From contig CAWGAA010000003.1 in the NCBI GenBank assembly GCA_963820525.1, forward strand, positions 704,001 to 768,000: 64,000 bases of DNA. The letters are read 5' to 3'. Positions 35,444-53,918 of this stretch are shown in pieces (within the stretch, counting starts at the first letter, position 1; each line of letters begins with the position of its first letter). Source of the stretch: an uncultured Spirochaetota bacterium (GTDB lineage Bacteria; Spirochaetota; Spirochaetia; SZUA-6; Fen-1364). Below the pieces are notes generated by a model that saw only the letters and a program-made list of their open reading frames with translations, was not told where the DNA came from and did no database searches. Position numbers and translations under genes: made by a program.

Positions 35444-35449
35444 GAAAAA

Positions 35450-35479
35450 AGGATACGTGCACGCGCGCGCACATGTCAA
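35450..35479 (-). promoter_or_regulatory. Sigma70-type promoter for M42 peptidase operon
   Basis: Minus strand TTGACA-N18-TATCCT, 6 nt before the ATG. Confidence 0.55.
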
Positions 35480-35611
35480 GGCAAGCAAAGCCGCGCTGCG
35501 TTACTGCAAGCGGCGGCAGCGGCGCCAGGGACAAACGGCAGCGGCTGGTGCGCCAGATGCTGCCGACGGGCCGCTGTTGCTCACCCGCCTTGCGGTGATA
35601 TAGTTGCCTCA

Positions 35612-36229
35612 ATGAAACTCAAATACAACGCGCCCGTCTGTTTGAGCTTTTCCCTGATCTCTGCCCTGGTCCTCCTGATAAGCCAGGTCACGGGGGGCAC
35701 CCTGATCTCCACCATGTTCTCGATCTCTCCGTTTGGATTCAACCTCGCCTCGCCGCTTTCGTGGTTTCGCCTCTTCTCCCACGTGATCGGGCACGCCAGC
35801 TGGACCCACCTCATCGGCAACTTCTCCTTCATCCTGCTCATCGGCCCCATCCTGGAGGAGAAGTACCACTCGGGGCCCATCCTCCTCATGATGCTCGTCA
35901 CCGCCCTGGCCACGGGACTGCTGGACCTCTTCATCATGAGGGCCCAGCTCCTCGGGGCGAGCGGCATCGTTTTCATGTTCATTCTTCTGTCCTCCTTCAC
36001 CAATATCCGCTCCAGGGAGATTCCCGTCACCTTCATCCTCATCGTGGTCCTGTATCTGGTGAAGGAGTTCGTCGACGCTCTCACTCCGAGTCCCATCGCC
36101 AATCTCGCCCACATCCTCGGAGGAGTCATCGGGGCAATGTTCGGTTTCCTCTTCAGCAGGAATGACGCGCAGGCAAAGACCCTTCCGCCAAAGCCTGACG
36201 GCACGACGATACAGGGGAGAAAGATATGA
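35612..36229 (+). CDS. Rhomboid intramembrane serine protease
   Basis: HVIGHASWTHLIGN, GPILEEKY, GASG, AHILGG. Confidence 0.9.
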   Translation: MKLKYNAPVCLSFSLISALVLLISQVTGGTLISTMFSISPFGFNLASPLSWFRLFSHVIGHASWTHLIGNFSFILLIGPILEEKYHSGPILLMMLVTALATGLLDLFIMRAQLLGASGIVFMFILLSSFTNIRSREIPVTFILIVVLYLVKEFVDALTPSPIANLAHILGGVIGAMFGFLFSRNDAQAKTLPPKPDGTTIQGRKI

Positions 36230-38350: not shown

Positions 38351-39493
38351 ATGAAGCGCAGAAGAACTGCTTTTGTTTTCATCCTGACGCTCGGGACGCT
38401 CCTCCCCTGGCGGCTTGCCGCCTGGGACGGCGCTTTCTTCGACCTTTTCCAGATCCCCTTCTCCGCCCGGGAAGCGGCGCTGGGGGGGGTCCACGCGGCC
38501 CTGGCCGACGATCTGACCACCCTGGTGAGCAATCCCGCCGGGTTCCGCTCCGCCGGCCCGGAGTTCTCCCTCGCTGAAATGACCTTCAGCATCTACGATT
38601 CGGCTCCTTCGCTGCTCGACGAGGTGATCACGAGCCAGCCCAGCACCACCCCGGATCTCCGCCGCGCGACCATGAACCTCATGGGGCCCCTTTTCATCGG
38701 CTACGTGGGCGATGGGCTGGGTTTCGGCCTTTTCAGCAGCACCAACGTCCGCACGTGGACCTGGGGGGCGTATCCAGCCGGCCGCTCGGTGATCCAGCAG
38801 AACCTCGTGGTGGTGGCCGGATATTCGTTTCGAATCCCGTTCCCCGAGGAGTGGCAGAGCACCCTCGACCTGGGCTTCACGATCCCCGTATTCGTCACGG
38901 CAAGAAGCGACACCGCGAAGGATGTCCGCGGGATATTCACTTCCTCCATTACCCCTCCCGCCGTGGTTGCCGACCAGCCCTTCACCATGGCGGAGGGAGT
39001 GAGCGCGGAGTTCGGGATTCTGTACTCCTACGACAATGTGTTCTCCGTGGGGATAGCGGCGCGGGACCTGGCCATTGTCTCGACGAACTCCTACCCATCC
39101 CTCGTCTCGTTTCTCGCGGGCGGTCTTCCCGATACGCGCAACACCCCCCTGCCCATGGACATATCGGCGGGGTTCAAATGGAGCCCGCCCATCAAGAATC
39201 TTCTCCGTTCCATCGATGGGCTCAGTCTCATGGCCGATTATCACGATATCTTCGATTTCGTCTTCTATCCGGAGGGGGCGCGAAATCCTTTCCTGCACAT
39301 CGGAATCGGCCTTGAGATGCAGATCCTGCAGATCGTGAAGCTGCGCGCCGGCTTTTACCAGTGCCTGCCCAGCGGAGGAATCGAGCTGGATCTTTCCCTG
39401 TTCAAGCTGAACGTGGCCGTATTCGGCAGGGAATTGACGAGCCGGCCCTGGGGGTACCCCGTGTACGGGTATATGATCGGGGTGAGATTCTAG
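38351..39493 (+). CDS. Outer-membrane beta-barrel protein, FadL/TraF/PorV-like
   Basis: Signal peptide; SAREAALGG...D...SNPAG hatch motif; alternating strands; terminal YMIGVRF. Confidence 0.7.
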   Translation: MKRRRTAFVFILTLGTLLPWRLAAWDGAFFDLFQIPFSAREAALGGVHAALADDLTTLVSNPAGFRSAGPEFSLAEMTFSIYDSAPSLLDEVITSQPSTTPDLRRATMNLMGPLFIGYVGDGLGFGLFSSTNVRTWTWGAYPAGRSVIQQNLVVVAGYSFRIPFPEEWQSTLDLGFTIPVFVTARSDTAKDVRGIFTSSITPPAVVADQPFTMAEGVSAEFGILYSYDNVFSVGIAARDLAIVSTNSYPSLVSFLAGGLPDTRNTPLPMDISAGFKWSPPIKNLLRSIDGLSLMADYHDIFDFVFYPEGARNPFLHIGIGLEMQILQIVKLRAGFYQCLPSGGIELDLSLFKLNVAVFGRELTSRPWGYPVYGYMIGVRF

Positions 39494-39524: not shown

Positions 39525-40208
39525 ATGAAGATTTTCGCGACCTTGACGGTCGCCCTCCTCACGGCAACGCCGGCGGCATGGACGCAGGAGCGGGCCGCAT
39601 CCGATGGGCTCATGCGAAAAATGGCCGCCCTGGTCCTGACGCACAACCCCATCCTCCTGTCGCAGAGCCGGCTCATCGAAGAGGGCCGGCGCATCGTCGA
39701 GCCGGGAGACGGATTCGCGATCCCGGGGATGACCCTCGGCGCGGGGCTTGGTATCTGGAACCCGTACACGAACTCCTTCGCCGTCACCCCCTCCGTGACC
39801 TTTGGTTTGAGCTTCTCCTTCAGCGATCCGACCCGGGGGCTGAACGTCCTGAAGATCAAGGAGGAGAAGGAGCTGGCCAAGCAGCAATGGGAGACGGCGA
39901 AGAACACGACGCTGGCCCAGCTCTTCTCCAAGATCCGCGACATCCAGAAGCTGAAGAGCCAGGGGAGGAACCTCGCCTCCCTGAAGAAGTACCTCGAGGA
40001 TTACAGCAGCGTTGCCCAGAGCCAGAGGATCGAGCAGGCAATCGGTCCCGACAAGCTCTGGGAGCTGAAGGAGCGGCTTACGAATCTCGATATTGACCTC
40101 CAGACCCTGGACGGCCAGCTTGAAACGACGATGCTGGAAACGGCCATGAGCCTCGGTGGGGACGCGTGGGAAGACCTGCTCCAGCTCCTCCGCGAGCTCG
40201 ACGGGTGA
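39525..40208 (+). CDS. Exported protein resembling a single outer-membrane efflux (TolC/OEP) repeat
   Basis: Signal peptide; helix ending HNPIL, beta-hairpin PGMTLGAGLG...SVTFGLSFSFSD, then long helices ending SLGG; GTGA overlap with wzc. Confidence 0.6.
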   Translation: MKIFATLTVALLTATPAAWTQERAASDGLMRKMAALVLTHNPILLSQSRLIEEGRRIVEPGDGFAIPGMTLGAGLGIWNPYTNSFAVTPSVTFGLSFSFSDPTRGLNVLKIKEEKELAKQQWETAKNTTLAQLFSKIRDIQKLKSQGRNLASLKKYLEDYSSVAQSQRIEQAIGPDKLWELKERLTNLDIDLQTLDGQLETTMLETAMSLGGDAWEDLLQLLRELDG

Positions 40209-42361
40209 GCGCGCCGGTCGGGGAGGACGGAAGAGCTTTGGCTGACGGCGCGAAGGACAGGAGGAGACTCGAGGATTTCTGGACCATCGTCTGGCAGCGG
40301 AAGTGGATCGTCGGCCTGGCCGTGCTCGCCACTCTGGCCGCCGTCTACATCGGCAACTCCCTGGCGACTCCCGCCTACGAGGCATCCGCCACCCTCCATA
40401 TCAAGGAGCAGATGCCCTCCGTCCTGGGCGAAAGCCTCTACAGCACGGGATTCTCGGATCTCTCCCCCCTGGAGGAGATCAACACGCAGATGGAGATCCT
40501 CAAGAGCCGCAGCATGCTGGAAGAGGTGATAGCCAAGCTGGGGCTCGTGGAGGCGCTGGCGCCCGTAAACAAGGGGCTCTCCCAGAGCGAGAGGCTGCAA
40601 TCTACCATCGACATCCTCAAGAAGCGGATTTCTGTCGGCAATGTCACAAGCACGCGGCTCATCAGGGTGTCGGTGCGTTCGCGGGATCCCGAGCAGGCGA
40701 TGAGAATCGCCAATGCGATCTCCGAGGCCTTCATAGAGAGGAACGTCGAGTCGAAACGCAGCGAGGCGAACGCGGTTTTGGCTTTCGTGAGCGACCAGGT
40801 GAACCAAGTGAGCGCCAAGCTGGACAGGGCGGAAGAGGACCTGCTGAAATACAAGCAGGCGCAGCGGATAACGGATCTCCCCGAGGAGGCCAGGCTCAAG
40901 CTCGACAGGCTTGCCGAGCTTGAAAGCTCCTACCAGCAGGCGAATATCGAGCGGCAGATCCTGGCCACCCGAAACGCCGGCGCACAGAAGCTCTCGCCGA
41001 CGGACGATCTCCTCGCCGGCATTTCGAACAACCCGTCCGTGAAGGCGATGCAGGACCAGCTCACGGGGCTGGAGGGACGCCTGACGGAACTGGGACCGGA
41101 AGACCCGAAAGCCGCGGGACTGAAGGGCCGGATCGAGTCCCTGCGGAAGGACATCCAGACGGAAATCGAAAAGGCGCTTGCGCCGGGCAAAGGCACGTCC
41201 GTCAATTCGGTGCTCCAGCTCCAGCTGGCCGAATACAAGTCGCAGGATATAATCCTCGCCGCCCAGCAGGAGGCGCTGCGGAAGCTGATCGATGCCAACG
41301 AAGGGGAGATAAACAGGCTGTCCGCCCAGGATATAAGCCTCGCCAGGCTGGAGCGGGCCCGAAGGATAAACGACGAGCTGTACTCCGCCTTGATGAAAGC
41401 GAAAAACGAGGCGCAGATCGAAGCGATCAGCCAGATCGGGAACATCGACGTCATCGATCCGGCCGTGACGCCCCTCTCTCCCGTGAGCCCGCGAAAGCAG
41501 GAGAACTTCATCGTCGGCTTTCTGCTCAGCCTCCTGATGGGAGTATGCCTCACCTTCCTCCTGGACTACTTCGACAACACGGTGAAGACGGAGGAAGAGG
41601 TCAAGAAGCTGCTGGAGATCCCGCTCCTGGGATTCATCCCCCGGTTCCATCAGAACGGCTCCCTGTCCGGCGGCAGGAAGTCCCGGGAAACCTCCAGAAA
41701 CCTCTCCCTCTTCACCCGGGACGCGCCGAAGTCCTCGATTTCCGAGGCTTTTCGCCTGCTGCGGACCAACCTCTCTTTCATCGAGCTGGACAGGGGGCTG
41801 AAGACGATCGCCGTGACGAGCGCCGTGCCCGGCGAGGGCAAGACCACGATCGTCGCCAACCTCGCCGTCGCCCTGGCCGCCCAGGAAGAGAGGGTGCTGG
41901 TCATGGACGCCGATTTCCGCGCCCCCGCCGTCCACAAGATGTTCGGTTTCCCCCATGCTCCCGGCTTCACCAACATCCTCACGGACCGCCTGAGCCCCCA
42001 GAGCCTGATCAGGCGGGTCAGCGGGGTTCCGAACCTGAGCATCATCACGAGCGGCCCCATCCCCCCGAACCCTGCGGAGATCATCGGCTCCTCGCGGATG
42101 AAGGAGCTGATCGATGAGCTGCGCGAGGGTTTTGATCGGGTCATCTTCGATGCGCCCCCGGTCCTCGGGGCCACGGACGCCGTGGTATTGGCTTCCCGCG
42201 TGGACGGCACGCTGCTGGTCCTCAGGACGGGAAGAATCGACAGGAGGGCAATCACGAGGATGAGGGAGATCCTCGGAAACACGAGAACCAACATCCTCGG
42301 GGGAATCCTCAACGGGGTCGACGTGGGGGACAAGCGATACAGCTACTACGGGTACTACTAA
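40205..42361 (+). CDS. wzc: Polysaccharide co-polymerase/tyrosine autokinase (Wzc)
   Basis: Two TMs around coiled coils; EAFRLLRTNL, PGEGKT, DADFRAP, PPNPAE, FDAPP; C-terminal Tyr cluster RYSYYGYY. Confidence 0.93.
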   Translation: MSAPVGEDGRALADGAKDRRRLEDFWTIVWQRKWIVGLAVLATLAAVYIGNSLATPAYEASATLHIKEQMPSVLGESLYSTGFSDLSPLEEINTQMEILKSRSMLEEVIAKLGLVEALAPVNKGLSQSERLQSTIDILKKRISVGNVTSTRLIRVSVRSRDPEQAMRIANAISEAFIERNVESKRSEANAVLAFVSDQVNQVSAKLDRAEEDLLKYKQAQRITDLPEEARLKLDRLAELESSYQQANIERQILATRNAGAQKLSPTDDLLAGISNNPSVKAMQDQLTGLEGRLTELGPEDPKAAGLKGRIESLRKDIQTEIEKALAPGKGTSVNSVLQLQLAEYKSQDIILAAQQEALRKLIDANEGEINRLSAQDISLARLERARRINDELYSALMKAKNEAQIEAISQIGNIDVIDPAVTPLSPVSPRKQENFIVGFLLSLLMGVCLTFLLDYFDNTVKTEEEVKKLLEIPLLGFIPRFHQNGSLSGGRKSRETSRNLSLFTRDAPKSSISEAFRLLRTNLSFIELDRGLKTIAVTSAVPGEGKTTIVANLAVALAAQEERVLVMDADFRAPAVHKMFGFPHAPGFTNILTDRLSPQSLIRRVSGVPNLSIITSGPIPPNPAEIIGSSRMKELIDELREGFDRVIFDAPPVLGATDAVVLASRVDGTLLVLRTGRIDRRAITRMREILGNTRTNILGGILNGVDVGDKRYSYYGYY

Positions 42362-42433: not shown

Positions 42434-43600
42434 CTACCCGCCGCCTTCGCCGCGAAGGACGAATCGCACAGCTTCCCCCAACCCTGCCGCTGCGGAGGCG
42501 AGAGCGTTCCCGGAAATCAGATCTCCAGCCCTGCGGCCCATTCTCCCCGCCTTCGACGGATCATCGATGAATAGCTTCATCCTCTCGGCGAGCTCCTCCG
42601 GCTGATGGGGATCGAAAACAATCCCGTTTTCTCCCTCGATGACCAGTTCGGACGCGCCCGCCCATCGGGAGCAGAGAACGGGCTTCGAAAAGGCCATGGC
42701 TTCCAGCACGGCCATTCCCCAGACATCCGTAAGAGTCGGGAATACGAAGACGTCGGCGAAATCGAAATATGACCCCAGCCGCCCGTATTCGACCCACCCC
42801 GCCCACGTGATGAGATCCTGCACGGCGAGCCTTCGAGAGCGCTCTTCGAGCTCTGCGCGCTGCGGCCCATCTCCGACCATCAGCACGGTGAAATCCCTCC
42901 GGCCCTGCGCCGCAAGAATCGCGCAGGCGTCCAGGAGGAACGAGAGGCCTTTGAGATGCGCTATCCGCCCGACGTACAGGAAAACGGGACGCCGCAAGCC
43001 GACAAGCCCCGATCCCGCCGGCGCCCCTACCGTGGACAGGGCGGCGGCGCACGGGACGAGATACGGCCTGCTGAAGACCCTGCCTTCTTCCGCTCGAAGC
43101 ACGTCGATCAGGTATTTGCGGCCCATGCGCGAATTCGTGATGAAAGCGTCCGCCCGCCTGGCCATGGCTTTCCTCATCAGCAGGCGGGTTTTCTTGCGCA
43201 TCGAATCGACGCCCGGGGAACTGCCGTCATACACGACGATCACTCTGAACCGAAACACCATCCGCAGAACAAGGGAGAGGGCGCTCCACGCATTGAAGCC
43301 GCTTGCGAAAATGACGCGGGGCCTGAAGCGCGCGATGTGGTACATGGCCCGCACCGGCAAGAGCGTCATGACGAGGTTGTGACTCCTGTCCGCCTTCTTG
43401 AGCGTGAGATTCCTGGCCCTCCCGACAAACCGATGCGAGAAAGATCCGGCATACTGCGCCGGGATGACGGTGCGCAGGCATGAGAAAACGGTCGTGCGGG
43501 GAAACAGCCGGGAAAACTCCGCCAGGATCGGATACCAGTAATACCCGCGCGCCATGAAGGGAATAAGCCACGCGACTGCGGGGCTCTCGCTTCTTTTCAT
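42434..43600 (-). CDS. Glycosyltransferase family 4
   Basis: LYVGRIAHLKG, VGDGP, DVWGMAVLEAMA. Confidence 0.9.
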   Translation of the reverse strand: MKRSESPAVAWLIPFMARGYYWYPILAEFSRLFPRTTVFSCLRTVIPAQYAGSFSHRFVGRARNLTLKKADRSHNLVMTLLPVRAMYHIARFRPRVIFASGFNAWSALSLVLRMVFRFRVIVVYDGSSPGVDSMRKKTRLLMRKAMARRADAFITNSRMGRKYLIDVLRAEEGRVFSRPYLVPCAAALSTVGAPAGSGLVGLRRPVFLYVGRIAHLKGLSFLLDACAILAAQGRRDFTVLMVGDGPQRAELEERSRRLAVQDLITWAGWVEYGRLGSYFDFADVFVFPTLTDVWGMAVLEAMAFSKPVLCSRWAGASELVIEGENGIVFDPHQPEELAERMKLFIDDPSKAGRMGRRAGDLISGNALASAAAGLGEAVRFVLRGEGGG

Positions 43601-44904
43601 ATTCTCCTGTTTACATGGCGCCGCAGAAACAGGAAATACGCGATTCCCGTGACGATGCTCGCCAGAACCATGCCCGCGGCGGCGCCATTGGTTCTGAAAG
43701 CATACACGAGGTACAGCCCGATCGTCAGCGTGAACAACGCCCCCACGGTCTGGGACCAGAATAGAGAGCTGGTTCGCTGAACCGATTTCAAGCCAATGAC
43801 GAGTCCCTGCGTCACGGCCCCCGCCAGGGTCGCAGCCCAGAGGTAGGGGAGCAATGCAAGGAAGCCGCCGTAGTAGGGGCGGCGGTAGATGAATACCACC
43901 ATCCATTTCTGTGCCAGGAGAAGGAATGCGAGGTACGCGCAGGAAAGGGCGACGTTTGCCGCAATGATCCTTCGAAGGATCGTCCCGAGGGAACGATCGC
44001 CGAGGCTGGCATGCTTGCGGGAAACAAGCGGCAGGAAGAGCATGCTCAACGCCGTCAGGCTCTGCTGCAGGGGTCGGAGGAAATTCTGCATCGCCTGGTA
44101 TGCGCCGGCTTGTTCCAGGCCGGCAAAAGACCCCACGAGAGGGATATAGAGGGTGCCGCTCATCCAGAAGACGAACGCGGAGCCGACAATCCATTTCCCG
44201 TACTGCCAGTGCTCCGACGCCACACTCGCGATGGCTCGCGATGCCGTGCGCCAGATCATCTCCTTCAGCCTCATGCCGAGGGAATAGAAAATCACGACGC
44301 CCGCCGCGACGCTGGCTGCCGCCATTGAGAGAAACGCGGAGAAAGTCGACGCCATCCTCCTGTCATGGATCAAAAACAAGGCGCCCAGGAGGACGAGGCA
44401 ATAGAGGAAACTTCCCCGCACGGCGAGATCGGGACGAGTCTGCGCATAGCACGCCGCGCGCAGCAGCCAGTAGAAAAGAATGAATGGCGAAGCGGCGGCA
44501 AGAGCAAGTATGGAGAGCGCCAGCGAGGACCCCGAAGCCTTCTCGACCAGTCCCGCTATCGTCAGCACCACGCTCAAGCCGATGGCCAGCCCGCCGTGAA
44601 GCCAGACGAGAGTGTAGGTATAGCGCCGCATTTCTTCTGCGTGGCGCGAGGGTCCCACGACGTATATCGGGTCCAGGATGAAGGCGTTATGAAAGCCGGA
44701 AATGAAGAGGAAAATCGAGAAGGCGATCGCGTAGATGCCGTACTCGGCGGGAGAAAGCCACCGGGCCAATACGAGGGTGAGGAGGAAGTTGGATCCCGAT
44801 GCGAGGCCCTGATCAAGAACGCTGAACAGGGATTTAACGCCCCACTTCTTCAGGAGAATCCATGCGGAATCGATCAGCCCTCTCAGGCCATGGAGGGAAG
44901 GCAC
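43597..44904 (-). CDS. wzx: Polysaccharide flippase (Wzx/MOP family)
   Basis: DQGLASGSNFLL..VLARWLSPAEYG; about 12 hydrophobic segments. Confidence 0.82.
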   Translation of the reverse strand: MPSLHGLRGLIDSAWILLKKWGVKSLFSVLDQGLASGSNFLLTLVLARWLSPAEYGIYAIAFSIFLFISGFHNAFILDPIYVVGPSRHAEEMRRYTYTLVWLHGGLAIGLSVVLTIAGLVEKASGSSLALSILALAAASPFILFYWLLRAACYAQTRPDLAVRGSFLYCLVLLGALFLIHDRRMASTFSAFLSMAAASVAAGVVIFYSLGMRLKEMIWRTASRAIASVASEHWQYGKWIVGSAFVFWMSGTLYIPLVGSFAGLEQAGAYQAMQNFLRPLQQSLTALSMLFLPLVSRKHASLGDRSLGTILRRIIAANVALSCAYLAFLLLAQKWMVVFIYRRPYYGGFLALLPYLWAATLAGAVTQGLVIGLKSVQRTSSLFWSQTVGALFTLTIGLYLVYAFRTNGAAAGMVLASIVTGIAYFLFLRRHVNRRI

Positions 44905-45797
44905 GCTCCCTCCTTCGCGGCAATGAGATTATTGACGCCTGATGGAACGCGGGGCGGATGGATTGGCGTGCAGTCTTCTCCGTCCCGGCAGCACCAGATG
45001 CGATACCCGTTGCGCGCGAGGAGGGCGAACAGCTCTTCGGGTGTGTACCCGAAGCTGGCATAATTCTCCGGCTCGTATTCGAAGATCCAGACCGGCGCCT
45101 CTTCCACCGGGAGCTTCAAAAGCGATGCCGAGCCGAGAAAAACCATCAATTCCGCACCCTCGACATCGACTTTCACGAGATTGGCTTTTTTCCTCTTCTG
45201 GGCGAAGTAGGTGTCCAGCCGAATCGATTTCACGCGAATGGCCTTCGCCACTTCGCGTCCCGGGAGGCGGACCGTCTTCCTCTTCAGCGCGGAAAAGGTC
45301 GACTCGGCGCATACCTCGAACTCTCCCGTCCCATCGCAATCCGAGACGGCGCACTCCCGCACAAGCACGTTGTCCAGGCCGTTGCTGGCGACGTTGCGCT
45401 TGAGAAGATCGAAAATCCGCGGATTCGGCTCGAAAGCATGGACTTCACCGTCACGCCGGACCGCGCGCGCTCCAAGCAATGTGTATTTCCCGATATGGGC
45501 GCCGACATCGACGAAAGTCATTCCCGGCTTCAGGAACCGCAGGACGAGCTTTTCAGTCTCGGGTTCGGAATAGCCCTGGTAGAAGAGCAGGGAGCCCTGC
45601 CCGTCATTTGCTACGGCAATCGTGAAATGCCCATGGAACGGGAGCAGCCAGGGCTTGCGAAAAAACCTCCACCGGAGCCGCCACAGCAGGCGCCGCCAGA
45701 GGGCTCGAGCGGGATTGCGCCGGAAATCCGAACGTCGGATGAGGCCCCGTGCCAGGAGACGGTATTGCTTGAGGGAGATTCTCGGGAATGATCTCAA
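44883..45797 (-). CDS. FkbM-family methyltransferase
   Basis: FVDVGAHIG, AFEPNP, VKVDVEGAE. Confidence 0.9.
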   Translation of the reverse strand: MRSFPRISLKQYRLLARGLIRRSDFRRNPARALWRRLLWRLRWRFFRKPWLLPFHGHFTIAVANDGQGSLLFYQGYSEPETEKLVLRFLKPGMTFVDVGAHIGKYTLLGARAVRRDGEVHAFEPNPRIFDLLKRNVASNGLDNVLVRECAVSDCDGTGEFEVCAESTFSALKRKTVRLPGREVAKAIRVKSIRLDTYFAQKRKKANLVKVDVEGAELMVFLGSASLLKLPVEEAPVWIFEYEPENYASFGYTPEELFALLARNGYRIWCCRDGEDCTPIHPPRVPSGVNNLIAAKEGACLPSMA

Positions 45798-45927: not shown

Positions 45928-48536
45928 ATGAGAGAGGACCGACACTCCAGGGAGGCGAATTCCATCGCAAGGTCTCAGAGGACCTCCCCAGAATCCTCCG
46001 TTCGCGATCGCAGCGCCAAGAGGTCCGCGCAGTCTCTGCAGCACACGGCGGACGAGATACTCCAATTGCTGGAACACCGGGGGATCCCGTACTGCATCCT
46101 TCACGGCTATCATGAATCGCGGCCCGATCTGGCTTCCGATCTGGACATCGCCATGCACCGCGGGAAAGTGAAAGAGCTTTTCCATCTGCTGTGCGCGCAG
46201 GATACCGCCCGATGCATTCAGATCATCGAATACGGGACCACAGGCTATTGTTTCGTCCTGGAGAACCGGGACGGTCTCGCCGTCCGTTTTCTCCCCTTGG
46301 ATTTCACCACGGAGTATCGCCGCAAAGGGCATGTCTTTTTTTCGTCGGATGAGCTTCTTGCGGATCGGCGCCGCGCGGGACGCTCCTGGATCTCGTCCCC
46401 GTCCGTGGAATTCCTCTACACGCTCGTCAAGAAAACGCTGAAGGGCAATTGTCCCGAGAGACAGCGAAAACGCCTGCAGGCCCTGAGCCTCGAGCTCGGC
46501 GAGGACGCCGCCACAAAAGTACAGCGGCTCTTTGGAAAGAAGCTGGCGGATCGCATCCCCTCCTGGTTGAGCGATGACGGCTCGAGTGCCTTCCAGGAGA
46601 ACCTCCCTCTTCTCCGTCGAGCCCTCCTGCGAAAAACGTTCCCGCTCAGCCCCCTCGCTCTCCTCCGCTACTGGCTGCCGGAGATTGGGCGGCTCTGGCG
46701 GCGAATCCGCCGTCCCACGGGCATGTTCGTCGCTGTTTTCGGGCCCGACGGCGCCGGCAAGAGTACGCTCATCCGGCATCTTTCAGAGCGCGTCAGAAAG
46801 GCTTTCCGAAACAACGATCGTTTTCATCTGCGTCCGGGAATCATGCCGTCGCGATTAGCAGCGATCCCGGCGGATGATCCTCATGGCAGGCCGCCGCAGC
46901 CATGGATTCGCTCCACCCTGAAGATCGCCTATCTCCTCCTGGACTATTCGCTGGGGTACCTCTGGAGAATACGCCCCAGGCTCTCGAGGTCATCCCTGGT
47001 TCTGTTTGACCGCTACTACGATGACCTGATGGTGGACTCACGCCGCTACCGGTATGGCGGACCTCCATGGCTCGTCCGTCTGGCTCGCCGACTCGTTCCC
47101 ACGCCCGATATGTACATGTTCCTGGACGTTTCCGAAGATGAGCTTGAAGCCAGAAAAAGGGAGATGTCTCGCGAGGAATTGCGGCGGCTGCGGGGGGCAT
47201 ACCGGAAGCTGGCTTTGCAGCTTCCAAACGCCATCCTCCTGGACGGGTCTCTCCCGGCGGCGACGGTGGCCCGCCATGCAAGCGAAATGGTCCTCCATTA
47301 CCTGAGAGATCGGTGTCGAAGGAGCTTTCGACGGCGGGGCGGCGGCGACCGCCGCGCCATGACAAGCCTTCTTCTGCAGATGCTGGGCGATCCTGCTGGG
47401 GGCGATTCGACGGATCAAAGACCGGGCAGGGGGTACGCGCTCCTCCCCCTGGATGATGGAAGGGGCTTGCTTCTTCCCCTCGAGCGCGGGCGCACCGCAT
47501 CGAGTGCCCTGGGGCTTTACAGCGCCCAGAGGCCGAGGGCGAGGGCGGTGAAGGCCCTCCTCGGCGCGGGAATGAGGTGCGGCGTCGCTCAGCCCTTCCT
47601 CCGGAGGATCGGGCCGGACGAAGGCTCCGTCGTGTTTCCCCTGCTCGAGCACCTGGCGCAGATTCTTGGACGGAGCGACCTGAGCTTCGCCATGTCGCTC
47701 GGCACACCGGGCCCCGATCAAAAGCCCGTCATCCAGGGGACCGCTCCGGATGGCAGCGTGCTGGCCTACGTCAAAGTAGGATGGAATCGGGCGACGAAAG
47801 ATCTGGTGCAGAGAGAAGCTGAGTTCCTGACCCGGATGAAGAGCATCGACATCCACTCCTGCGTCATACCGGAGCCGTATCATGCGGGCTCGTGGAAAAA
47901 TCGGTTCCTCCTCGTCCAATTGGCGCCTCAAAAGAAGGCGCTTCCCGCGCCGCGGGAGATGACCCAAAAGCATGTGTCGATTTGCCAGGAATTGGCGGGC
48001 ATCCATACCCGTCGGCAGCCGCTCACGGAGGCCGCATTCTGGTTGCGCCTCGTCCAACGGGTCCGGCGGATCCCCAACGCCTGCCTCCGTCACCTCATTT
48101 CGCGCGGAATGCGCCGCCTGGAAGCACAGCTTGGCGGACTTCGGCTCGCTTTTCATCTCTGCCATGGAGATTTCGCTCCCTGGAACATGCTATCGTTGAA
48201 TGGGACGCTGTTCCTCTTCGACTGGGAGTACGCGGATTGGGAAGGGCCGCCTGGATACGACCTGTTCCATTTCAACTTCCAGACCAGGCCCTGCTCCAGA
48301 GACAGCCGCCCGCGCGGATCCGAAAGGAGCTTGGAAAAAACGGGACGTGCGCGAGCTGGATTGGGCGCTATCTGCAGGCACTGGGAATGGGAACGGAGCT
48401 TCTCGAGCCCCTCCTTTTGCTTTACCTGCTGGACCGATTGACCTTCCGCGCCCTTGACGAGCGTGAGAGCTTCTCGACGCTGCTCCGTCTTTCAACGATG
48501 GTCCACCTGTGTCTGGAGGAGGAAGAGAGGCCGTGA
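45928..48536 (+). CDS. Fusion: nucleotidyltransferase-like + thymidylate-kinase-like + APH/choline-kinase-like phosphotransferase (frameshift near 48288)
   Basis: YCILHG...SDLDI; GPDGAGKST, FDRYYDD, PTPD..FLDV; YVKVG, HGDFAPWN, FDWEYA; C-terminal helices continue in the -1 frame to 48536. Confidence 0.75.
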
Positions 48537-49768
48537 TACAGCGCCTGAGGGTCCTGGCATCGGCATACGCGTGCGAGCCGGAAAAGGGATCCGAGCCGGG
48601 CATCGGTTGGAACCTGGTACTGCAAATAAGCCGCTTCAACGAAGTCTGGGTCATCACGCGGAAATCAAACGAGGATGCCATTCGCCGGGCGGGACATCCC
48701 TTGCCACATGTCCACTGGTCATTCTACGATCTGCCCGTCTGGGCGCGTTTCTGGAAAAGGGGGCAGCGGGGAGTCCATCTCTATTACCACCTCTGGCAGG
48801 CAGGCGCATATCTCCAGGCCAGACGGCTGTCCAGGAGAGTCCGCTTCGATCTCGCTCACCACGTCACCTTCGGGAACTACTGGATGCCCAGCCTTCTGTG
48901 GCTTCTTCCCGTGCCCTTCGTCTGGGGGCCGGTCGGCGGCGGCGAGTCCGCCCCTGCCGCACTGTGGAAGTCCTTCGGGGCGCGGGCGAGGCTTTTCGAG
49001 CGCCTGAGGGCCGCCGCGCGCTCGCTCGGCGAGAGCAATCCCCTGGTCAGGCTCGGCGCCCGGCGAGCCAGCCTTGCGCTCGCCGCTACTCCCGAGACGG
49101 CGGCACGTCTGGCGCGGCTGGGGTCCAGAGAGGTGAAAACCTTCGGAAACACGGGCCTGGGGGAGGAGGAGATCGAGCGGCTGGGCTCCGTGCCCGTTCG
49201 GGACGACGGACCTCTTCGGCTGGTGAGCATCGGGCGGCTTCTCCCGTGGAAGGGCTTCCATCTGGGGTTGGAGGCCTTCGCCAGGCTGCTCGCCGCTTTT
49301 CCCGGGAGCACCTATGGGTTGATCGGCGACGGGCCCGAACGTCCCCTGCTGGAAGCCCTCTCACGGCGATTGGCAATTGCCGGCGCCGTCACTTTTCGGG
49401 GACGGCTTCCCCGGCCGCGCGTCCTGGAATCGATGGCGGACTACGACGTCCTGGTCCATCCCAGCCTGCACGATTCGGGAGGCTGGGTCTGCCTGGAGGC
49501 AATGGCCGCGGGACGTCCCGTGATCTGCCTCGATCTGGGCGGGCCGGCGCAGCAGGTGTCCGAAGAGACGGGCTTCGCGGTGCCCGCCTTTTCACGCGAG
49601 CAGGCGGTCGAAGGATTGGCGCGCGCCATGAGGAGCCTCGCTTCCGACGCGGAAATGAGGAAACGGATGGGTGAATCCGCCAGGAAAAGGGCGGCGGAGC
49701 GTTTCGCTTGGAGCAGGAAAGGGGAGCGGATGAGAGAACTGTATGCACGCGCCCGGGAGAGGATCTAG
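48533..49768 (+). CDS. Glycosyltransferase family 4
   Basis: SAYACEPEKGSEPGIGW, GPVGGGE, GRLLPWKG, HDSGGWVCLEAMAAG. Confidence 0.9.
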   Translation: MIQRLRVLASAYACEPEKGSEPGIGWNLVLQISRFNEVWVITRKSNEDAIRRAGHPLPHVHWSFYDLPVWARFWKRGQRGVHLYYHLWQAGAYLQARRLSRRVRFDLAHHVTFGNYWMPSLLWLLPVPFVWGPVGGGESAPAALWKSFGARARLFERLRAAARSLGESNPLVRLGARRASLALAATPETAARLARLGSREVKTFGNTGLGEEEIERLGSVPVRDDGPLRLVSIGRLLPWKGFHLGLEAFARLLAAFPGSTYGLIGDGPERPLLEALSRRLAIAGAVTFRGRLPRPRVLESMADYDVLVHPSLHDSGGWVCLEAMAAGRPVICLDLGGPAQQVSEETGFAVPAFSREQAVEGLARAMRSLASDAEMRKRMGESARKRAAERFAWSRKGERMRELYARARERI

Positions 49769-51244
49769 GTGCCACGGGCTTCTCTCCTGGGCGTCCCGCC
49801 CAGGATCATCATATACCGCGGCGTCATTGCGGGCGCTGTGCTCGTTACCGGAATGCTCACGGGACTCTCCGTCGTGGACACCCCCTGGATCGCCTGGGCG
49901 CTGGCGGCAGTCATGGCGGCTGCCGTGCTCTTCATTGCGCCCGCCCACATCCGCATCGGTGCTGTCGTGCTGGCGGCGGCATGTTCGAGACTCCTCGTCG
50001 CCACAGGGGTTGTCTCCAACTTTGCGAACTTCTTCCACTTTCCCCTGGCGCTCGGTGTCGCCCTCATCTCCGCCATTGAATCGACGACAAAGTCGCGCCT
50101 CAAGCGGCCGCTTGAAGTGGCGTCAATCTCTCTCCTCGGGGTCTCCCTTGTTAGCTGGCTCATCAATCGAGGAGAGCTCATCCGCCCCTTCCTGGATTGG
50201 CTTGTTTTCGTGGAGCCCCTTTTGATCGTGTACGCCATCGTGAACATGCCCCCGGATCACTCCAAGGTGAAGGCGCTGTGGATGCTGGTCCTCCTTATCC
50301 CCTTTGCACAACTGATTCTGGCTGCATACCAGGCGCTGACCCTGGGTCTGGGTGATCCCGTTCAGGGATTCTTCGTCGACATGGGCGCCGGCGCCCACGT
50401 TGCGGGAGCCGTCTCCTTGATGGGGACCCTGACCTGCGTTTCCCGGGCCCTTTCCGTCGAGAAAGCGACCTCACGGCTCTCCTGGCTGCTGGGCGCGAGC
50501 ACGCTCTTTCTGGTTGCAGTCGGCGCGGACGCAAAACAGGTCATCATCGCCTTCCTGCCGGCGCTGGTCATGCTCCTTCTCATTTCAACTCGCATCCGTC
50601 TCTCCAGGGCCATTTTTGCCCTCCCGCTCCTGGCCGTGCTCGTGCTGGGCGCGTTTTCCTACTACCGTCCTTTGCAGATGGTTCTGGACTGGGCTCTGAT
50701 CAGCCGAGGCGCCCTGGGAAAAGCCCAGGCATTCTCCATGATAGCGGGAAAGCTCTCCGAGAGCGGGGTCCGATGGCTTCTGGGGCTGGGTCCGGGCAAC
50801 TCTGTGAGTCGGGTAGCGCTGATGGGGCTGGAAACAATGGTGAAGCTCGACTCGCCCGTGAGGCTGCTCGGTCTCGGCCCGGCGGCGGTAACGCGAGAGC
50901 TCATGACCCAGACCGCGGCCAACTGGCTGTACTCGTCTTCCTCCGTCTGGAGCTTCGTATCGAGCTGGCTGGCGCTCTTGGGAGATCTGGGCCTGGCCGG
51001 CATCGGCATCTTTCTCTGGACATTCTGGAAATTATGGGTCAGCTTGCGCGCTCGCCGCGGATGGAAGGCGGCCACCGCAAGGGCGGTATTGCTCATGATG
51101 ATCATTCTCGCGTGCCTCTACAGCTGGCTCGAGGAGCCGGGATTCACCTTGATCGCCGCGCTCATCGTGGGGCTCGGCTCGATCGACACCGCATCACAAG
51201 AAATCCTTCCGGAGAAACAACCGGAGAAAAGCCCCGCGCACTGA
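49769..51244 (+). CDS. Polytopic membrane protein, probable Wzy-type polymerase/O-antigen ligase-like
   Basis: About 11-12 TMs, late periplasmic loop with LLGLGPG, then LGDLGLAG; located among GT genes. Confidence 0.6.
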   Translation: MPRASLLGVPPRIIIYRGVIAGAVLVTGMLTGLSVVDTPWIAWALAAVMAAAVLFIAPAHIRIGAVVLAAACSRLLVATGVVSNFANFFHFPLALGVALISAIESTTKSRLKRPLEVASISLLGVSLVSWLINRGELIRPFLDWLVFVEPLLIVYAIVNMPPDHSKVKALWMLVLLIPFAQLILAAYQALTLGLGDPVQGFFVDMGAGAHVAGAVSLMGTLTCVSRALSVEKATSRLSWLLGASTLFLVAVGADAKQVIIAFLPALVMLLLISTRIRLSRAIFALPLLAVLVLGAFSYYRPLQMVLDWALISRGALGKAQAFSMIAGKLSESGVRWLLGLGPGNSVSRVALMGLETMVKLDSPVRLLGLGPAAVTRELMTQTAANWLYSSSSVWSFVSSWLALLGDLGLAGIGIFLWTFWKLWVSLRARRGWKAATARAVLLMMIILACLYSWLEEPGFTLIAALIVGLGSIDTASQEILPEKQPEKSPAH

Positions 51245-51254
51245 GGAGACGACA

Positions 51255-51905
51255 TTGCAGAAAAGAGTGCAGTGGATACTGCGTCACGTGAAAGGCCCCC
51301 GCGTTCTCGACATCGGGTGCGCCGGCTACCTCCCCGATGCCTCATCGGCCTGGTGGCTCCATGGCCGGCTCTACAGCCTTTTCCCCCAAGTGGTCGGAAT
51401 CGATTACGATGAGAAAATCGTCGGGGACCTGGCGGCCATGGGCTACCAGCGCATCCACCATGCCGACGCCCAGAGTTTCCAGCTCGCGGAGCGGTTCGAT
51501 ACCATTGTGGCCGGAGAGGTGATCGAGCACCTGCCAAACCCTGGAGTCTTCCTGGAGCGGGCGCGACATCATCTTGCTCCCGGCGGCAGGCTGATCGTCA
51601 CAACGCCCTCGGTCTTCTCGCTCGCTCACTTCCTCTATGCGCTGGTGCATTTTCCGCATACCTGCCCGAATCCAGGGCATACGGGCTGGTTCTGCCTGGA
51701 GACGCTTGCGCGCCTGGCTGCACTCAACGGCTTTCGGATCCGCTCCTGGGACCTGCTGGAAGATTACCGCTTCGATGTCCCGGCGCCGCTGTATCGCCTT
51801 TTCATTGCCGCGCTCTCCATCACGCGTCCGCTGATCCCGAAACGCCTGCGGGCAAACACTCTGGCCTTCATTCTGGAGCCCAATGAAGATACTCCTCGTC
51901 CATAA
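51255..51905 (+). CDS. Class I SAM-dependent methyltransferase
   Basis: VLDIGC, GID, FDTIVAGEVIEHLPNP, GGRLIVTTP. Confidence 0.88.
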   Translation: MQKRVQWILRHVKGPRVLDIGCAGYLPDASSAWWLHGRLYSLFPQVVGIDYDEKIVGDLAAMGYQRIHHADAQSFQLAERFDTIVAGEVIEHLPNPGVFLERARHHLAPGGRLIVTTPSVFSLAHFLYALVHFPHTCPNPGHTGWFCLETLARLAALNGFRIRSWDLLEDYRFDVPAPLYRLFIAALSITRPLIPKRLRANTLAFILEPNEDTPRP

Positions 51906-53052
51906 TCACTACCTCCAGTCCGGCGGCGAAGACGCCGTTTTCGCCGCGGAAAGCGCCCTCCTCGACCGTCACGGCCATCAGGTGGCGCGCTATGTGGAGG
52001 ACAACCGGCGGATCGAGAAGATCGGCCGGTCGGCGGCGGCCGTGCGTGCCGTATGGTCTTCCCCTGCGAAGCGGAGAGTGCTTCGCCTCCTCCGCCGCGA
52101 GCTGCCGGATGTGGCTCATTTCCACAATACCTTCCCCCTCATCTCCCCGTCGGCATACTACGCGTGCCGCGAGACCAGTACCCCCGTGATCCAGACTCTC
52201 CACAACTTCAGGCTCCTCTGCCCGAACGCTCTTTTCCTGCGTAATGGACGTGTATGCGAAGACTGCATGGGCCGGCCTCTGCCCTGGCCGGGAATCGTCC
52301 ATGCCTGCTACCGGAAGTCCCTTCTCCAGAGCGCCGGCGTGGCCGCGATTCTCGGGCTGCATCGCCTGATCGGTACCTGGAACGGCCGTGTTGACCTCTA
52401 TATCGCGCTGAGCGAGTTCGCCAGGGAGAAGTTCGTCATGAACGGCGTCCCGGCGGAGAAGATCGCCGTGAAGCCGAATTTCGTGCATCCCGACCCCGGG
52501 GGGAACGCGGGCGGCGGATCCTACGCGCTTTTCGCGGGAAGGCTCTCCGAGGAGAAGGGGATCGAGACGCTGCTCGATGCATGGCGAACGCTGAAGAACA
52601 TAGAGCTTGCCGTCGCCGGTGACGGCCCCCTCATGGGGAGAGTTCGCGCGCTGGCTGAATCCCACCCCGAGACGGGAATCCGGGCATACGGCCGGCTCCC
52701 GCATGAGGAGGTGCTCCGGCTGATGAAGAGCGCCCGCTTCCTCGTATGCCCGTCTCTGTGCTACGAGAGCTTTCCCATGGTGATTGCCGAAGCCTTCGCC
52801 TGCGGGCTGCCGGTCGTTGCGACCGACATCGGGGCGGTCGCGGAGCTGGTGGTTGACCGGCGCACGGGAAGGCGCTTCCGCGCGGGTGATCCCTCAAGCC
52901 TGGCGGAAGCGGTGGCATGGCTGTGGTCGCACCCCGAGCAGGCGCGGGGCATGGGAAGGGAAGCGCGTCGGGAGTTCGAGACGAAGTACACCGCGGAGAG
53001 GAACTACGAGCTTCTGCTCGATATCTATTCCAGGGCGATGAGAAGCCGCTGA
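51883..53052 (+). CDS. Glycosyltransferase family 4
   Basis: HNHYLQSGGED, HNTFPLISP, TLHNFRLLCP, GRLSEEKG, YESFPMVIAEAFA. Confidence 0.92.
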   Translation: MKILLVHNHYLQSGGEDAVFAAESALLDRHGHQVARYVEDNRRIEKIGRSAAAVRAVWSSPAKRRVLRLLRRELPDVAHFHNTFPLISPSAYYACRETSTPVIQTLHNFRLLCPNALFLRNGRVCEDCMGRPLPWPGIVHACYRKSLLQSAGVAAILGLHRLIGTWNGRVDLYIALSEFAREKFVMNGVPAEKIAVKPNFVHPDPGGNAGGGSYALFAGRLSEEKGIETLLDAWRTLKNIELAVAGDGPLMGRVRALAESHPETGIRAYGRLPHEEVLRLMKSARFLVCPSLCYESFPMVIAEAFACGLPVVATDIGAVAELVVDRRTGRRFRAGDPSSLAEAVAWLWSHPEQARGMGREARREFETKYTAERNYELLLDIYSRAMRSR

Positions 53053-53068: not shown

Positions 53069-53857
53069 ATGACGGACGCGAGCGCAGGCACCCTGAGAGT
53101 CGACATCCTCGGATGCGCCGTGGACCGTCTCACGATGCAGACCGCACTCGAGAAGCTCGAGCGATTGATCGCCTCCCCGGGCAAGCACCAGGTGATCGTG
53201 CTTCCCGTCAACTCCGTCATGACCGCCCGAAGGGACGCGGGATTCCGAAAGATCTGCAACGCCTCATCCCTTGTCCTTCCCGACGGCGTGCCCGTTCTCT
53301 GGGCATCGCGGCTCCTGGGTCGGCCAATCCCCGGCCGTGTGGCGGGCTCGGACCTGTTCTGGGAGCTTTCCCGCCTCGCCTCCCGAAGGGGCTGGTCATG
53401 CTACCTTCTGGGCTCGCGCGCCGAGGTTCTCGAAGCGCTGGAGGCAAGGCTGCGCGAGCGGTTCCCGGGGCTCATCGTGTCCGGCCGGCATGCTCCTCCC
53501 CTGCGCCACGAGTTTCCCGCCGCGGTGACCGACGACATCATCGCGCGCATCAACGCGGCGCATCCCGACATCCTCTGGGTCGGCATCGGCGCCCCCAAAC
53601 AGGAGAGGTGGATCCACGCCAACCTGGAAAAGGTGAATGCGAAGCTTGCCATCGGCGTCGGTGCCGCATTCGATCTGTGCAGCGGCTCCATGAAGCGCGC
53701 TCCCCGCTGGATGCAGCGCTGCGGGCTGGAATGGCTCTACAGGTTCATCAAGGAGCCCCGAAGGCTGTTCAGGCGCTACTTCATCGAAGCGATGCCGTTC
53801 CTTCCCCTGGTCCTGGCACGGCGGTTGAACGATCTGTTCACGGGGCATGGAGTCTGA
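53069..53857 (+). CDS. WecB/TagA/CpsF-family glycosyltransferase (GT26)
   Basis: PDG, RVAGSDL, VGIGAPKQE, GVGAAFD, RAPRWMQ..GLEWLYR..EPRRL. Confidence 0.93.
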   Translation: MTDASAGTLRVDILGCAVDRLTMQTALEKLERLIASPGKHQVIVLPVNSVMTARRDAGFRKICNASSLVLPDGVPVLWASRLLGRPIPGRVAGSDLFWELSRLASRRGWSCYLLGSRAEVLEALEARLRERFPGLIVSGRHAPPLRHEFPAAVTDDIIARINAAHPDILWVGIGAPKQERWIHANLEKVNAKLAIGVGAAFDLCSGSMKRAPRWMQRCGLEWLYRFIKEPRRLFRRYFIEAMPFLPLVLARRLNDLFTGHGV

Positions 53858-53867
53858 TACCGCAATG

Positions 53868-53876
53868 TGCTATACT
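53868..53876 (+). promoter_or_regulatory. Extended -10 promoter element
   Basis: TGCTATACT upstream of 53919. Confidence 0.5.
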
Positions 53877-53918
53877 AGGGGGTACGCATTCATTATCCGA
53901 AGGAATTACGGGGAGAAC

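Follow-up and report, generated by a model that had tools for sequence, protein, structure and literature searches.

The window analysed here is a stretch of 64,000 nucleotides from an uncultured Spirochaetota bacterium. At 39525..40208 on the forward strand it carries an open reading frame (ATG at 39525, stop TGA at 40206-40208) for a 227-aa protein, 'half-TolC', which its frame, its Pfam OEP match, an AF2 model, its family and a four-copy fold together identify as a single-repeat OEP protein. Its N-terminus (MKIFATLTVALLTATPAAW) reads as a signal peptide without a lipobox Cys (residues 1-21; 39525..39587, forward strand), and across the aligned homologues both the h-region and an A-x-A-like site are preserved. 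The half-TolC stop shares the tetranucleotide GTGA (40205..40208, forward strand) with the start of wzc, whose GTG at 40205-40207 creates a 4-base overlap; when the Wzc alignment is back-projected onto relatives, the overlapping start stands in the same register in loci L015 and L016. The preliminary description, which had claimed an exported protein of ~227 aa whose stop overlaps the wzc start, is borne out on each point. A second possible wzc start, GTG at 40166, likewise overlaps half-TolC.

The product of the overlapping gene (40205..42361, forward strand) is a complete Wzc of 718 aa, a PCP-2a tyrosine autokinase as judged from Pfam, NCBIfam and its TM segments. Wzz and GNVR domains lie between TM segments at about 35-53 and 435-453, which enclose a periplasmic domain of about 380 aa, and are followed by a C-terminal P-loop kinase (Pfam and NCBIfam) and a Tyr-rich tail containing YSYYGYY; these are all the features that define a PCP-2a.

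The surrounding genes form a polysaccharide cluster. Upstream of half-TolC, a protein of 380 aa, counted from M25 of its ORF and ending in ...GVRF (38351..39493, forward strand) is identified by AF2 and Foldseek as an outer-membrane beta-barrel of the FadL/TodX/PorV type. Its model (pLDDT 86) has 14 strands and an N-terminal hatch and matches FadL and TodX (E 3.7e-8) and PorV (1e-6), while its sequence gives no more than a weak N-terminal match to PorV/PorQ. On the reverse strand, Pfam identifies a GT4 glycosyltransferase (42434..44194), whose ORF overlaps the flippase, so that its true start is probably more internal, and an FkbM-family methyltransferase (44883..45797); between them Pfam and hydrophobicity identify a Wzx-type flippase (Polysacc_synt_3, 8 hydrophobic segments; 43597..44904). 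The forward strand encodes two further GT4 enzymes (48509..49768 and 51883..53052), a WecG/TagA-family glycosyltransferase (53069..53857) and an initiating phosphoglycosyl transferase (Bac_transf; 54879..56471), all found by Pfam, as well as a candidate Wzy polymerase (49769..51244) of 491 aa with 13 hydrophobic segments, no Pfam match and a homologue in L015. Last comes a secreted Wzi-like protein of 544 aa (56494..58128, forward strand), tentatively placed in this family of capsule-assembly outer-membrane barrels by its homologues and by the ESM Atlas, where a 'Wzi family' cluster gives a feature score of 0.99. PF14052 (Caps_assemb_Wzi) matches 11 of 27 of these homologues (best E 2.4e-7) and does not match the window protein at E<=0.01; the family profile finds nothing in the PDB at E<=0.1. 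A possible OmpG-like lipoprotein is also encoded in the cluster.

The preliminary description had stated that no Wza/poly_export gene is recognizable in 38.3-58.1 kb, and Pfam indeed finds neither Poly_export nor SLBB in the 24 ORFs of 34.4-59.6 kb. Half-TolC and wzc are translationally coupled, and the polysaccharide cluster around them is a complete one of the Wzx/Wzy type without an OPX (Wza) gene.

Half-TolC matches the Pfam OEP profile (PF02321) at E 3.9e-6, its 27.2 bits exceeding the curated cut-off of 22. There is one match only, spanning residues 67-211 and profile positions 38-187, and it is the sole Pfam match at E<=0.01, with no Poly_export (PES) or SLBB domain. Given this score and the fact that 29 of 47 family members match the same profile (best E 9.5e-15), the match is not a chance event. 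In addition, hhalign aligns the family with a 468-aa TolC of the same genome (81.9% probability, E 1.1e-5) such that half-TolC residues 17-199 are colinear with TolC 20-222, which is the first repeat. Profile match and alignment agree with the earlier proposal that the protein has the layout of one OEP repeat. NCBIfam holds no family for it, and a profile of 15 close homologues searched against PDB sequences finds only 2qup, with an E of 0.37 that is not meaningful.

Whereas TolC-family outer-membrane factors (OMFs) have protomers of about 430-500 aa with two OEP repeats in tandem, and the canonical OMFs of this same genome show two OEP matches each in frames of 487-726 aa, half-TolC has one. 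The same is true of its relatives. The family is rare, comprising 49 cluster representatives (42 of 198-300 aa, 6 fragments and one of 1316 aa), and none of the 49 has the size of a two-repeat protein (400-520 aa). In a sample of 401 genomes from the phylum, G000 holds the only true family member; six further matches (E 1.9e-9 to 8.7e-6) proved to be ordinary two-repeat OMFs in frames of 432-523 aa. Thus, the homologues are single-repeat proteins rather than two-repeat TolC, a point that the preliminary description had proposed to check, and together with half-TolC they form a family of their own in which every member has roughly the length of one repeat. On sequence grounds, half-TolC is secreted and falls within the TolC/outer-membrane-factor (OEP) superfamily as a protein of one repeat.

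The AF2 monomer model (pLDDT 77.8) places helices at residues 15-40 and 42-56, separated by N41-P42, strands within 69-95, and further helices at 102-168 and 175-226. This order of short helix, beta-hairpin, long helix and return helix is that of an OEP repeat. Of the layout claimed previously, the helix ending in NP and the single hairpin stand, whereas the three long helices are reduced to two, of 67 and 52 aa. The amphipathic hairpin (residues 68-100; 39726..39824, forward strand) provides candidate membrane strands, as suggested by its alternating pattern, by AF2 and by a four-copy model. Hydrophobic residues alternate in both strands (LGAGLGIW and VTFGLSFSFS), which have pLDDT values of 47-61 in the monomer. 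The best Foldseek matches in the PDB are OprM, VceC, TolC and CusC (TMq 0.57-0.59, E only about 1e-2). A VIA search, which is independent of Foldseek, yields alignments of at least 197 residues for VceC, CusC and 5azo alone (197-207 residues), with Z values of 9.0-9.4 that are tied with those of generic helical hairpins. OMFs are the only full-length structural matches to half-TolC, in VIA at scores that do not set them above helical hairpins.

When four copies of half-TolC are folded together, the ipSAE is 0.42 (runs of 0.42, 0.23 and 0.61) and that of the best control is 0.00, with a contact agreement of at least 77% and a partner pLDDT of at least 67; among solved pairs, 20 of 30 attain the mark used in this test, and among single chains 1 of 23 does. 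The predicted interface sets residues 42-57, 67-78 and 179-209 of one copy against 89-99 and 101-157 of its neighbour, and within it residues 67-78 pair with 89-99 of the next copy. The job comprised four copies rather than a closed ring, its runs varied, and the pass may stem from solved TolC trimers that the model has memorized. Self-association with TolC-like, side-by-side packing is thus a prediction, in which strand S1 would lie against S2 of the adjacent copy and a pseudo-continuous helix against the long helix.

The linkage of half-TolC to wzc, on which the preliminary description had laid weight, extends well beyond the window. The wzc gene lies directly downstream of half-TolC in six of six Spirochaetota genomes (G000, L015/G413, L016/G414, L017, L018/G434 and L029/G418) and in the partial locus L019. 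Related loci were searched with a 10-row alignment of distant family members. Of the metagenome loci, 26 extend for at least 400 nt beyond half-TolC; among these, wzc begins within 400 nt in 16 and at 486 nt in one more, and in six others Wzy_C or Wzx genes follow. In distant metagenomic relatives, two or three tandem half-TolC copies precede wzc, wzy or wzx, and adjacency to one of these genes is kept across a deep tree. Neither Poly_export nor SLBB occurs in the 52 ORFs of eight metagenome loci or in the 24 ORFs of seven loci.

A search of the source genome for PF02563, as the preliminary description had suggested, gives three matches, all on another contig (C1) and all in other polysaccharide islands with their own PCPs. 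Use of an OPX protein in trans is therefore possible for this genome. One of the three, a 301-aa OPX at C1:882 kb, was considered as an orphan partner for Wzc and set aside, because two PCP genes share its 50-kb polysaccharide region and it is not clearly an orphan. No OPX was found anywhere in three of four related genomes that carry the half-TolC module (74-89% complete); the fourth, G413, has Poly_export beside a second PCP. SLBB matches were also considered as hidden OPX proteins near the module. Of the 19 in these four genomes, eight were checked, and all eight are NuoF/RnfC-type redox proteins or fragments, among them an SLBB-only fragment of 189 aa in G414; G418:C21:62207, G434:C7:62897, G434:C3:294670 and five matches in G413 away from its OPX gene (C41, C157, C27, C10 and C13:25156) lie outside this check.

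Because the usual exporter Wza is missing from this cluster, half-TolC may be a new exit duct for slime or capsule sugars. We consider the chances evenly balanced that an oligomer of half-TolC serves as a polysaccharide conduit in place of Wza, a reading that best accounts for the OEP profile membership, the one-repeat length, the conserved gene coupling and the OPX-free cluster. We infer that half-TolC would form a channel that docks to Wzc and lets the polymer through, as follows. Several copies would pack side by side as the two repeats of TolC do. Since each chain supplies one repeat, six (or another number of) chains would be needed rather than three, with six reproducing TolC geometry and eight matching the Wzc octamer. 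Strand S1 of each copy would pair with S2 of its neighbour, and the 67-residue helix of that neighbour would lie against the pseudo-continuous helix, in which 175-~210 is stacked beneath 42-57. The assembly would comprise an outer-membrane beta-barrel and an alpha-tunnel of roughly 100 Å across the periplasm; seated on the periplasmic ring of Wzc, this tunnel would lead the polymer out in Wza's stead.

Half-TolC has features in common with two known kinds of exporter. It resembles TolC, OprM, VceC and CusC in its OEP profile and in its succession of short helix, beta-hairpin, 67-residue helix down and helix up; it differs from them in having no lipid-anchor Cys, and from TolC-family OMFs in having Wzc as its neighbour, with MFP and inner-membrane pump genes absent nearby. 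In some lineages there are two or three paralogous half-TolC genes, one with a shortened hairpin, which also departs from TolC-family OMFs. With Wza of the E. coli group 1 capsule and colanic acid systems it shares secretion, a position upstream of wzc in a Wzx/Wzy cluster with a Wzi-like gene and, like an OPX gene, direct contact with the PCP gene. However, half-TolC has neither Poly_export/PES nor SLBB, is unrelated to Wza in fold and is not a lipoprotein; the membrane part of Wza is an alpha-helical barrel, whereas that of half-TolC would be a beta-barrel. Wza is about 140 Å long, similar to TolC. The portions consulted of PMC8277102 give 140 Å for OprM, and those of PMC12881504 describe the Wza-Wzc complex as a continuous, envelope-spanning channel of about 250 Å.

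Several observations count against a half-TolC duct. In relatives with tandem genes, the hairpin region of the first paralogue is 13-16 residues shorter and charged, a poor fit with a simple TolC-like barrel; a six-fold half-TolC ring would be mismatched with eight-fold Wzc; and the FadL-like, Wzi-like and possible OmpG-like proteins could offer alternative routes through the outer membrane. The FadL-like and Wzi-like barrel candidates had gone unnoticed in the preliminary description. These points lead to the strongest competing explanation, which we nevertheless judge unlikely: half-TolC could be a helper of Wzc in the periplasm or in association with the outer membrane, perhaps as scaffold, spacer or gate, with the polymer leaving by a Wzi-like or FadL-like barrel or by an OPX protein encoded elsewhere. 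The adjacent FadL-like barrel has a homologue in the same cluster in four of five genomes (G000, G413, G414 and G418, not G434), the Wzi-like protein is close by, contig C1 holds the three OPX genes, the first tandem paralogues have no membrane-type hairpin, and YjbH-like proteins are encoded upstream of the tandem pair in L032 and L054. Yet only the half-TolC gene or genes and wzc are kept together in distant relatives, no FadL-like homologue being found in L032-L061, and barrels of the FadL type are plugged 14-strand channels for small hydrophobic molecules. The OPX genes of the source genome have PCP partners of their own, three of four related carriers show no OPX, and the half-TolC hairpin of the window is strongly amphipathic. 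Moreover, Wzi is described as a lectin rather than an exporter in the sections consulted of PMC3791409.

It is far less probable that half-TolC is the OMF of a pump for efflux or type-1-like secretion that has nothing to do with polysaccharide, and that it lies beside wzc by accident. It belongs to the OEP family by profile, and OEP proteins normally serve tripartite pumps, according to the consulted part of PMC8277102, but the 24 ORFs of 34.4-59.6 kb include no MFP/HlyD, RND or ABC transporter, and the partner gene of half-TolC, through overlap here and adjacency over the deep tree, is wzc rather than an MFP with an ABC, RND or MFS pump. We reject this reading on both grounds. We likewise reject, as hardly credible, the idea that the gene is what is left of an ordinary two-repeat TolC gene after truncation: although half-TolC is half the usual length and has a single OEP match, its signal peptide and frame are intact, 42 full-length one-repeat relatives stand against no two-repeat ones, 28 columns are invariant among the 15 close homologues, and the start of wzc at the stop codon leaves no place for a second repeat.

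To our knowledge, it is accepted that a PCP such as Wzc always passes the polymer on to an OPX protein, which acts by itself or together with a beta-barrel, and that ducts of the TolC family always contain two repeats per chain and work for pumps that have MFP adaptors. The conserved association of a single-repeat OEP protein with Wzc would be an exception to both rules at once. The arrangement itself is real and apparently undescribed, as we found no account of a one-repeat OEP protein, or of an OEP gene beside wzc, in the literature outside subscription journals. If half-TolC does form the duct, this would explain polymer export from OPX-less Wzx/Wzy clusters in Spirochaetota and uncultured sediment lineages, would offer a natural test case for the origin of the TolC fold by duplication, and could supply a small exit duct, perhaps a modular one, with which polysaccharide secretion might be engineered.

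More tentatively, and with somewhat less than even confidence, we propose that Wzx/Wzy pathways have an additional kind of outer-membrane terminus, in which a single-repeat TolC-fold duct would sit directly on the Wzc ring with no OPX protein. With a subunit of a single repeat, the ring would not have to be six-fold: an assembly of eight would have 16 strands and could match the Wzc octamer. The subunits may be living examples of the form of TolC that preceded duplication, and lineages with two or three paralogues, one without a membrane hairpin, may build hetero-oligomeric versions with a built-in periplasmic adaptor.

Two further described systems are close to this proposal. Myxococcus Eps and Exo use composite translocons of a class-3 OPX protein and a beta-barrel, as set out in the portions consulted of PMC9603273 and PMC12819527, where a term search returned none of the words TolC, efflux or Spirochaet. 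As portrayed there, these systems share with the half-TolC cluster a Wzx/Wzy pathway, an outer-membrane step other than classical Wza and a separate barrel encoded nearby, but they keep an OPX protein, whereas the half-TolC cluster has none. For cyanobacterial cellulose secretion, a TolC-like exporter with an HlyD-like partner has been proposed (Maeda 2018, as cited in the consulted part of PMC8892547), so that there, too, a polysaccharide would cross the periplasm and outer membrane through a TolC-fold duct. On that account, the cyanobacterial system combines a full two-repeat TolC with a synthase and an MFP, whereas here a single-repeat protein accompanies a PCP-2a kinase and Wzx/Wzy.

The gene for half-TolC, a single-repeat OEP protein, spans 227 codons of the forward strand, from an ATG at 39525 to a TGA at 40206-40208, and this stop overlaps the GTG start of wzc at 40205 as GTGA. 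The 718-residue product of the downstream gene is a complete Wzc of the PCP-2a class, with Wzz, GNVR and P-loop (AAA_31/CbiA/ParA) domains, hydrophobic segments at residues 35-53 and 435-453, and a YSYYGYY tail. An alternative wzc start in the ORF listing, GTG 40166, also overlaps half-TolC; position 40205 is favoured because the Wzc alignments of two related loci (L015 and L016) back-project to a start at the stop of the upstream gene.

Half-TolC begins with a signal peptide that lacks Cys, followed by the invariant motif HNPxLxSQ, a hairpin region in which hydrophobic residues alternate (LGAGLGIW ... VTFGLSFSFS) and two long helices of 67 and 52 residues. An AF2 model resting on 15 homologues (mean pLDDT 77.8) places a helix at 15-40, N41-P42, a helix at 42-56, strands within 69-95 (pLDDT only 47-61) and helices at 102-168 and 175-226. 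The preliminary description of the protein stands except for its 'three long helices', of which the model gives two.

Profile evidence carries the assignment of half-TolC to the OEP family. Pfam returns a single OEP match above the curated cut-off (27.2 versus 22 bits, E 3.9e-6), OEP is matched by 29 of 47 members of the half-TolC family (best E 9.5e-15), and the family profile aligns with a canonical 468-aa TolC of the same genome (G000; probability 81.9%, E 1.1e-5). This alignment pairs residues 17-199 with TolC 20-222 and runs colinear with the first TolC repeat from the mature N-terminus. Structural evidence agrees without being decisive: the best PDB matches by Foldseek are the outer-membrane factors (OMFs) 5azs/5azo, OprM, VceC, TolC and CusC, with TMq values of 0.57-0.59 but E values of only about 1e-2, and HlyD is also in the top ten. 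In a Foldseek-independent search, VceC, CusC and 5azo gave the only alignments covering 197-207 residues, at Z scores (9.0-9.4) tied with generic helical hairpins. A PDB sequence search and NCBIfam gave no match.

An exhaustive phmmer search of 1.84 billion cluster representatives (E ≤ 1e-3) recovered 49 family proteins, 42 of them 198-300 aa long and six of them fragments of 58-133 aa; a 1316-aa protein matches repeatedly, in the hairpin region only, and none of the 49 falls in the 400-520 aa range of two-repeat OMFs. The nearest 15 proteins measure 227-258 aa and share 28 invariant columns. These one-repeat lengths and invariant columns lead us to reject a truncated TolC. By the titles of the related contigs, the group belongs to Spirochaetota. 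The family is rare and patchy: among 401 genomes sampled across the phylum only G000 holds a true member, and among 60 closer relatives half-TolC occurs in 3 of 24 from the same family and 1 of 36 from the same order. G000 carries a single copy, and its other 19 OEP matches lie in frames of 487-726 aa. The sole other non-paired OEP match in that genome is a lone partial one outside the window (C1:855470-855751), which scores 29.9 bits over profile positions 86-179 and lies in an open frame of 643 aa.

The coupling to wzc recurs among relatives. wzc lies immediately 3' of half-TolC in all six Spirochaetota genomes (G000, L015=G413, L016=G414, L017, L018=G434 and L029=G418) and likewise follows it on the partial contig L019. 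A metagenome scan with distant family members yielded 30 loci, most with two tandem family genes and one (L047) with three. At 26 loci the sequence extends 400 nt or more downstream; several of these are near-duplicates, so that the counts are non-independent. In 16 of the 26, wzc follows within 400 nt, and in L032 it follows at 486 nt. Elsewhere the family genes are followed by a Wzy_C protein (L049-L051), a Wzx-type flippase (L056, L058, L060) or a transposase (L054), and at L048 and L059 the downstream sequence, of at least 400 nt, holds no recognisable gene.

A maximum-likelihood tree resolves the family into four clades: 'tandem-first' (support 100/98), 'tandem-second' (96/92), that of the window protein (100/100) and a fourth of 11 proteins. 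In first-gene paralogues the hairpin region is charged and shorter by 13-16 residues, which is at odds with a simple TolC-like ring. Tandem genes precede wzc at, for example, L047:5148-7561 (three) and L034:5285-6717 and similar loci (two), and upstream of tandem loci lie sigma-54 response regulators, histidine kinases and TPR proteins. Just 5' of the tandem genes, L032:1824-2609 and L054:2343-3125 encode 260-aa proteins with a weak match to YjbH, a group 4 capsule barrel family.

Neither Poly_export nor SLBB, the signatures of Wza-type (OPX) exporters, is matched in the 24 ORFs of 34.4-59.6 kb or in any of the 76 ORFs scanned at loci of relatives. In G000, PF02563 is matched three times, each time on contig C1, and there are three GNVR/PCP genes: a 50-kb polysaccharide region (C1:874-925 kb) holds an 842-aa SLBB protein, a 301-aa OPX and two Wzz-type PCPs, and at C1:2.21 Mb a 589-aa OPX adjoins the third, weak PCP. 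These exporters thus have local partners; an OPX could still serve the window Wzc in trans. Of four related carriers of the module only G413 has Poly_export, which scores 44.9 bits there and lies 13 kb from a second PCP. In G414, G418 and G434 (89, 74 and 83% complete), neither Poly_export (E ≤ 0.01) nor a query with the 301-aa OPX gave a match. All eight SLBB matches inspected, of 19 in these four genomes, are NuoF/RnfC-type proteins or fragments. The 842-aa OPX-like gene (L062:13140-15668; C1:918-921 kb, outside the window) encodes four SLBB domains and adjoins a split pair of Wzz-type PCP genes (196 and 390 aa), with a MarR regulator and an ordinary two-repeat TolC beside it.

We predicted a complex of four copies of residues 22-227 from a 47-row alignment, with three controls. 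The fold gave an ipSAE of 0.42 (runs 0.42, 0.23 and 0.61) versus 0.00 for the best control, with at least 77% of contacts in common between runs and partner pLDDT of at least 67. Of solved homomeric pairs, 20 of 30 attain that mark, and of single chains 1 of 23, in a calibration that used two copies and the tool's own alignments, and the pass may reflect memory of solved relatives. In the predicted interface, 67-78 (S1), 42-57 and 179-209 of one copy face 89-99 (S2) and 101-157 of the next. Contacts of 42-50 with 112-123 and of 201-209 with 127-138 would stack helix 42-57 on top of helix 175-~210, the two forming a single pseudo-continuous helix. H2 and H4 stack in this way in TolC, and the modelled neighbour contacts are those between adjacent TolC repeats.

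Gene order, translational coupling, deeply conserved pairing, and the lack of an OPX and of a pump partner point to a model in which half-TolC, a single-repeat OMF, would self-assemble into a barrel-plus-tunnel duct that receives polymer from Wzc in Wza's stead. This is the best-supported reading, with about an even chance of being right. Its main rival, which we consider possible but less probable, makes half-TolC an accessory partner of Wzc, the pore being another barrel or a distant OPX. A FadL/TodX/PorV-type 14-strand barrel (38351-39493; predicted fold pLDDT 86, Foldseek E 3.7e-8) is encoded directly 5' of half-TolC, and homologues recur in the corresponding polysaccharide cluster of G413, G414 and G418; none was found in the G434 cluster or the distant metagenome loci. 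An unrelated efflux role and a gene remnant both fit the data poorly; the first is improbable, the second very improbable indeed.

The half-TolC-wzc pairing itself is real and, to the extent of our searches, undescribed. Wza is about 140 Å long, and an old analogy likens MPA/OMA to MFP/OMF. Our searches of the full-text literature turned up neither a one-repeat OEP protein nor any pairing of an OEP gene with wzc, and term searches within OPX classification papers, Wza-Wzc structure and review papers and a Chem Rev efflux review gave neither. The nearest precedent, given in the review PMC8892547 (citing Maeda 2018), concerns cyanobacterial cellulose, for which a TolC-like exporter of full length with a HlyD-like partner has been proposed. 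PMC8277102 derives the two OMF repeats from gene duplication and gives OprM a length of ~140 Å; PMC12881504 has the Wza-Wzc complex spanning ~250 Å. Half-TolC is a variation on both the OMF family and the Wzx/Wzy export scheme.

The FadL-like gene adjoins a second wzc in G414 and L019, where one of two wzc paralogues follows half-TolC and the other the barrel (L019:181-6116; G414 C5:612.5-616 kb). A secreted 544-aa protein (56494-58128; atlas feature score 0.99) looks Wzi-like: 11 of 27 homologues match PF14052, the protein itself does not, and its profile finds no PDB match. It belongs to a large, mostly Spirochaetota family, and its gene lies just 3' of the initiating transferase. A 326-aa protein (53847-54827) with a lipobox-like N-terminus (…VAAAGC) has a weak OmpG-like atlas lead (0.94) and no family match.

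Apart from these genes, the cluster amounts to a full Wzx/Wzy set, with an initiating enzyme (Bac_transf), a WecG and several GT4 enzymes, methyltransferases, a flippase (Wzx) and a Wzy candidate of 13 segments. Also within it, an 837-aa cytoplasmic protein (45928-48441) has both a P-loop/thymidylate-kinase-like region and an APH-type phosphotransferase domain and may act in sugar or polymer modification. Close to the cluster on its upstream side, and following a rhomboid-domain gene (34415-36229), 36226-37653 encodes a secreted 475-aa protein with sub-threshold matches to DUF4139 and to MuiA, a mucoidy inhibitor.
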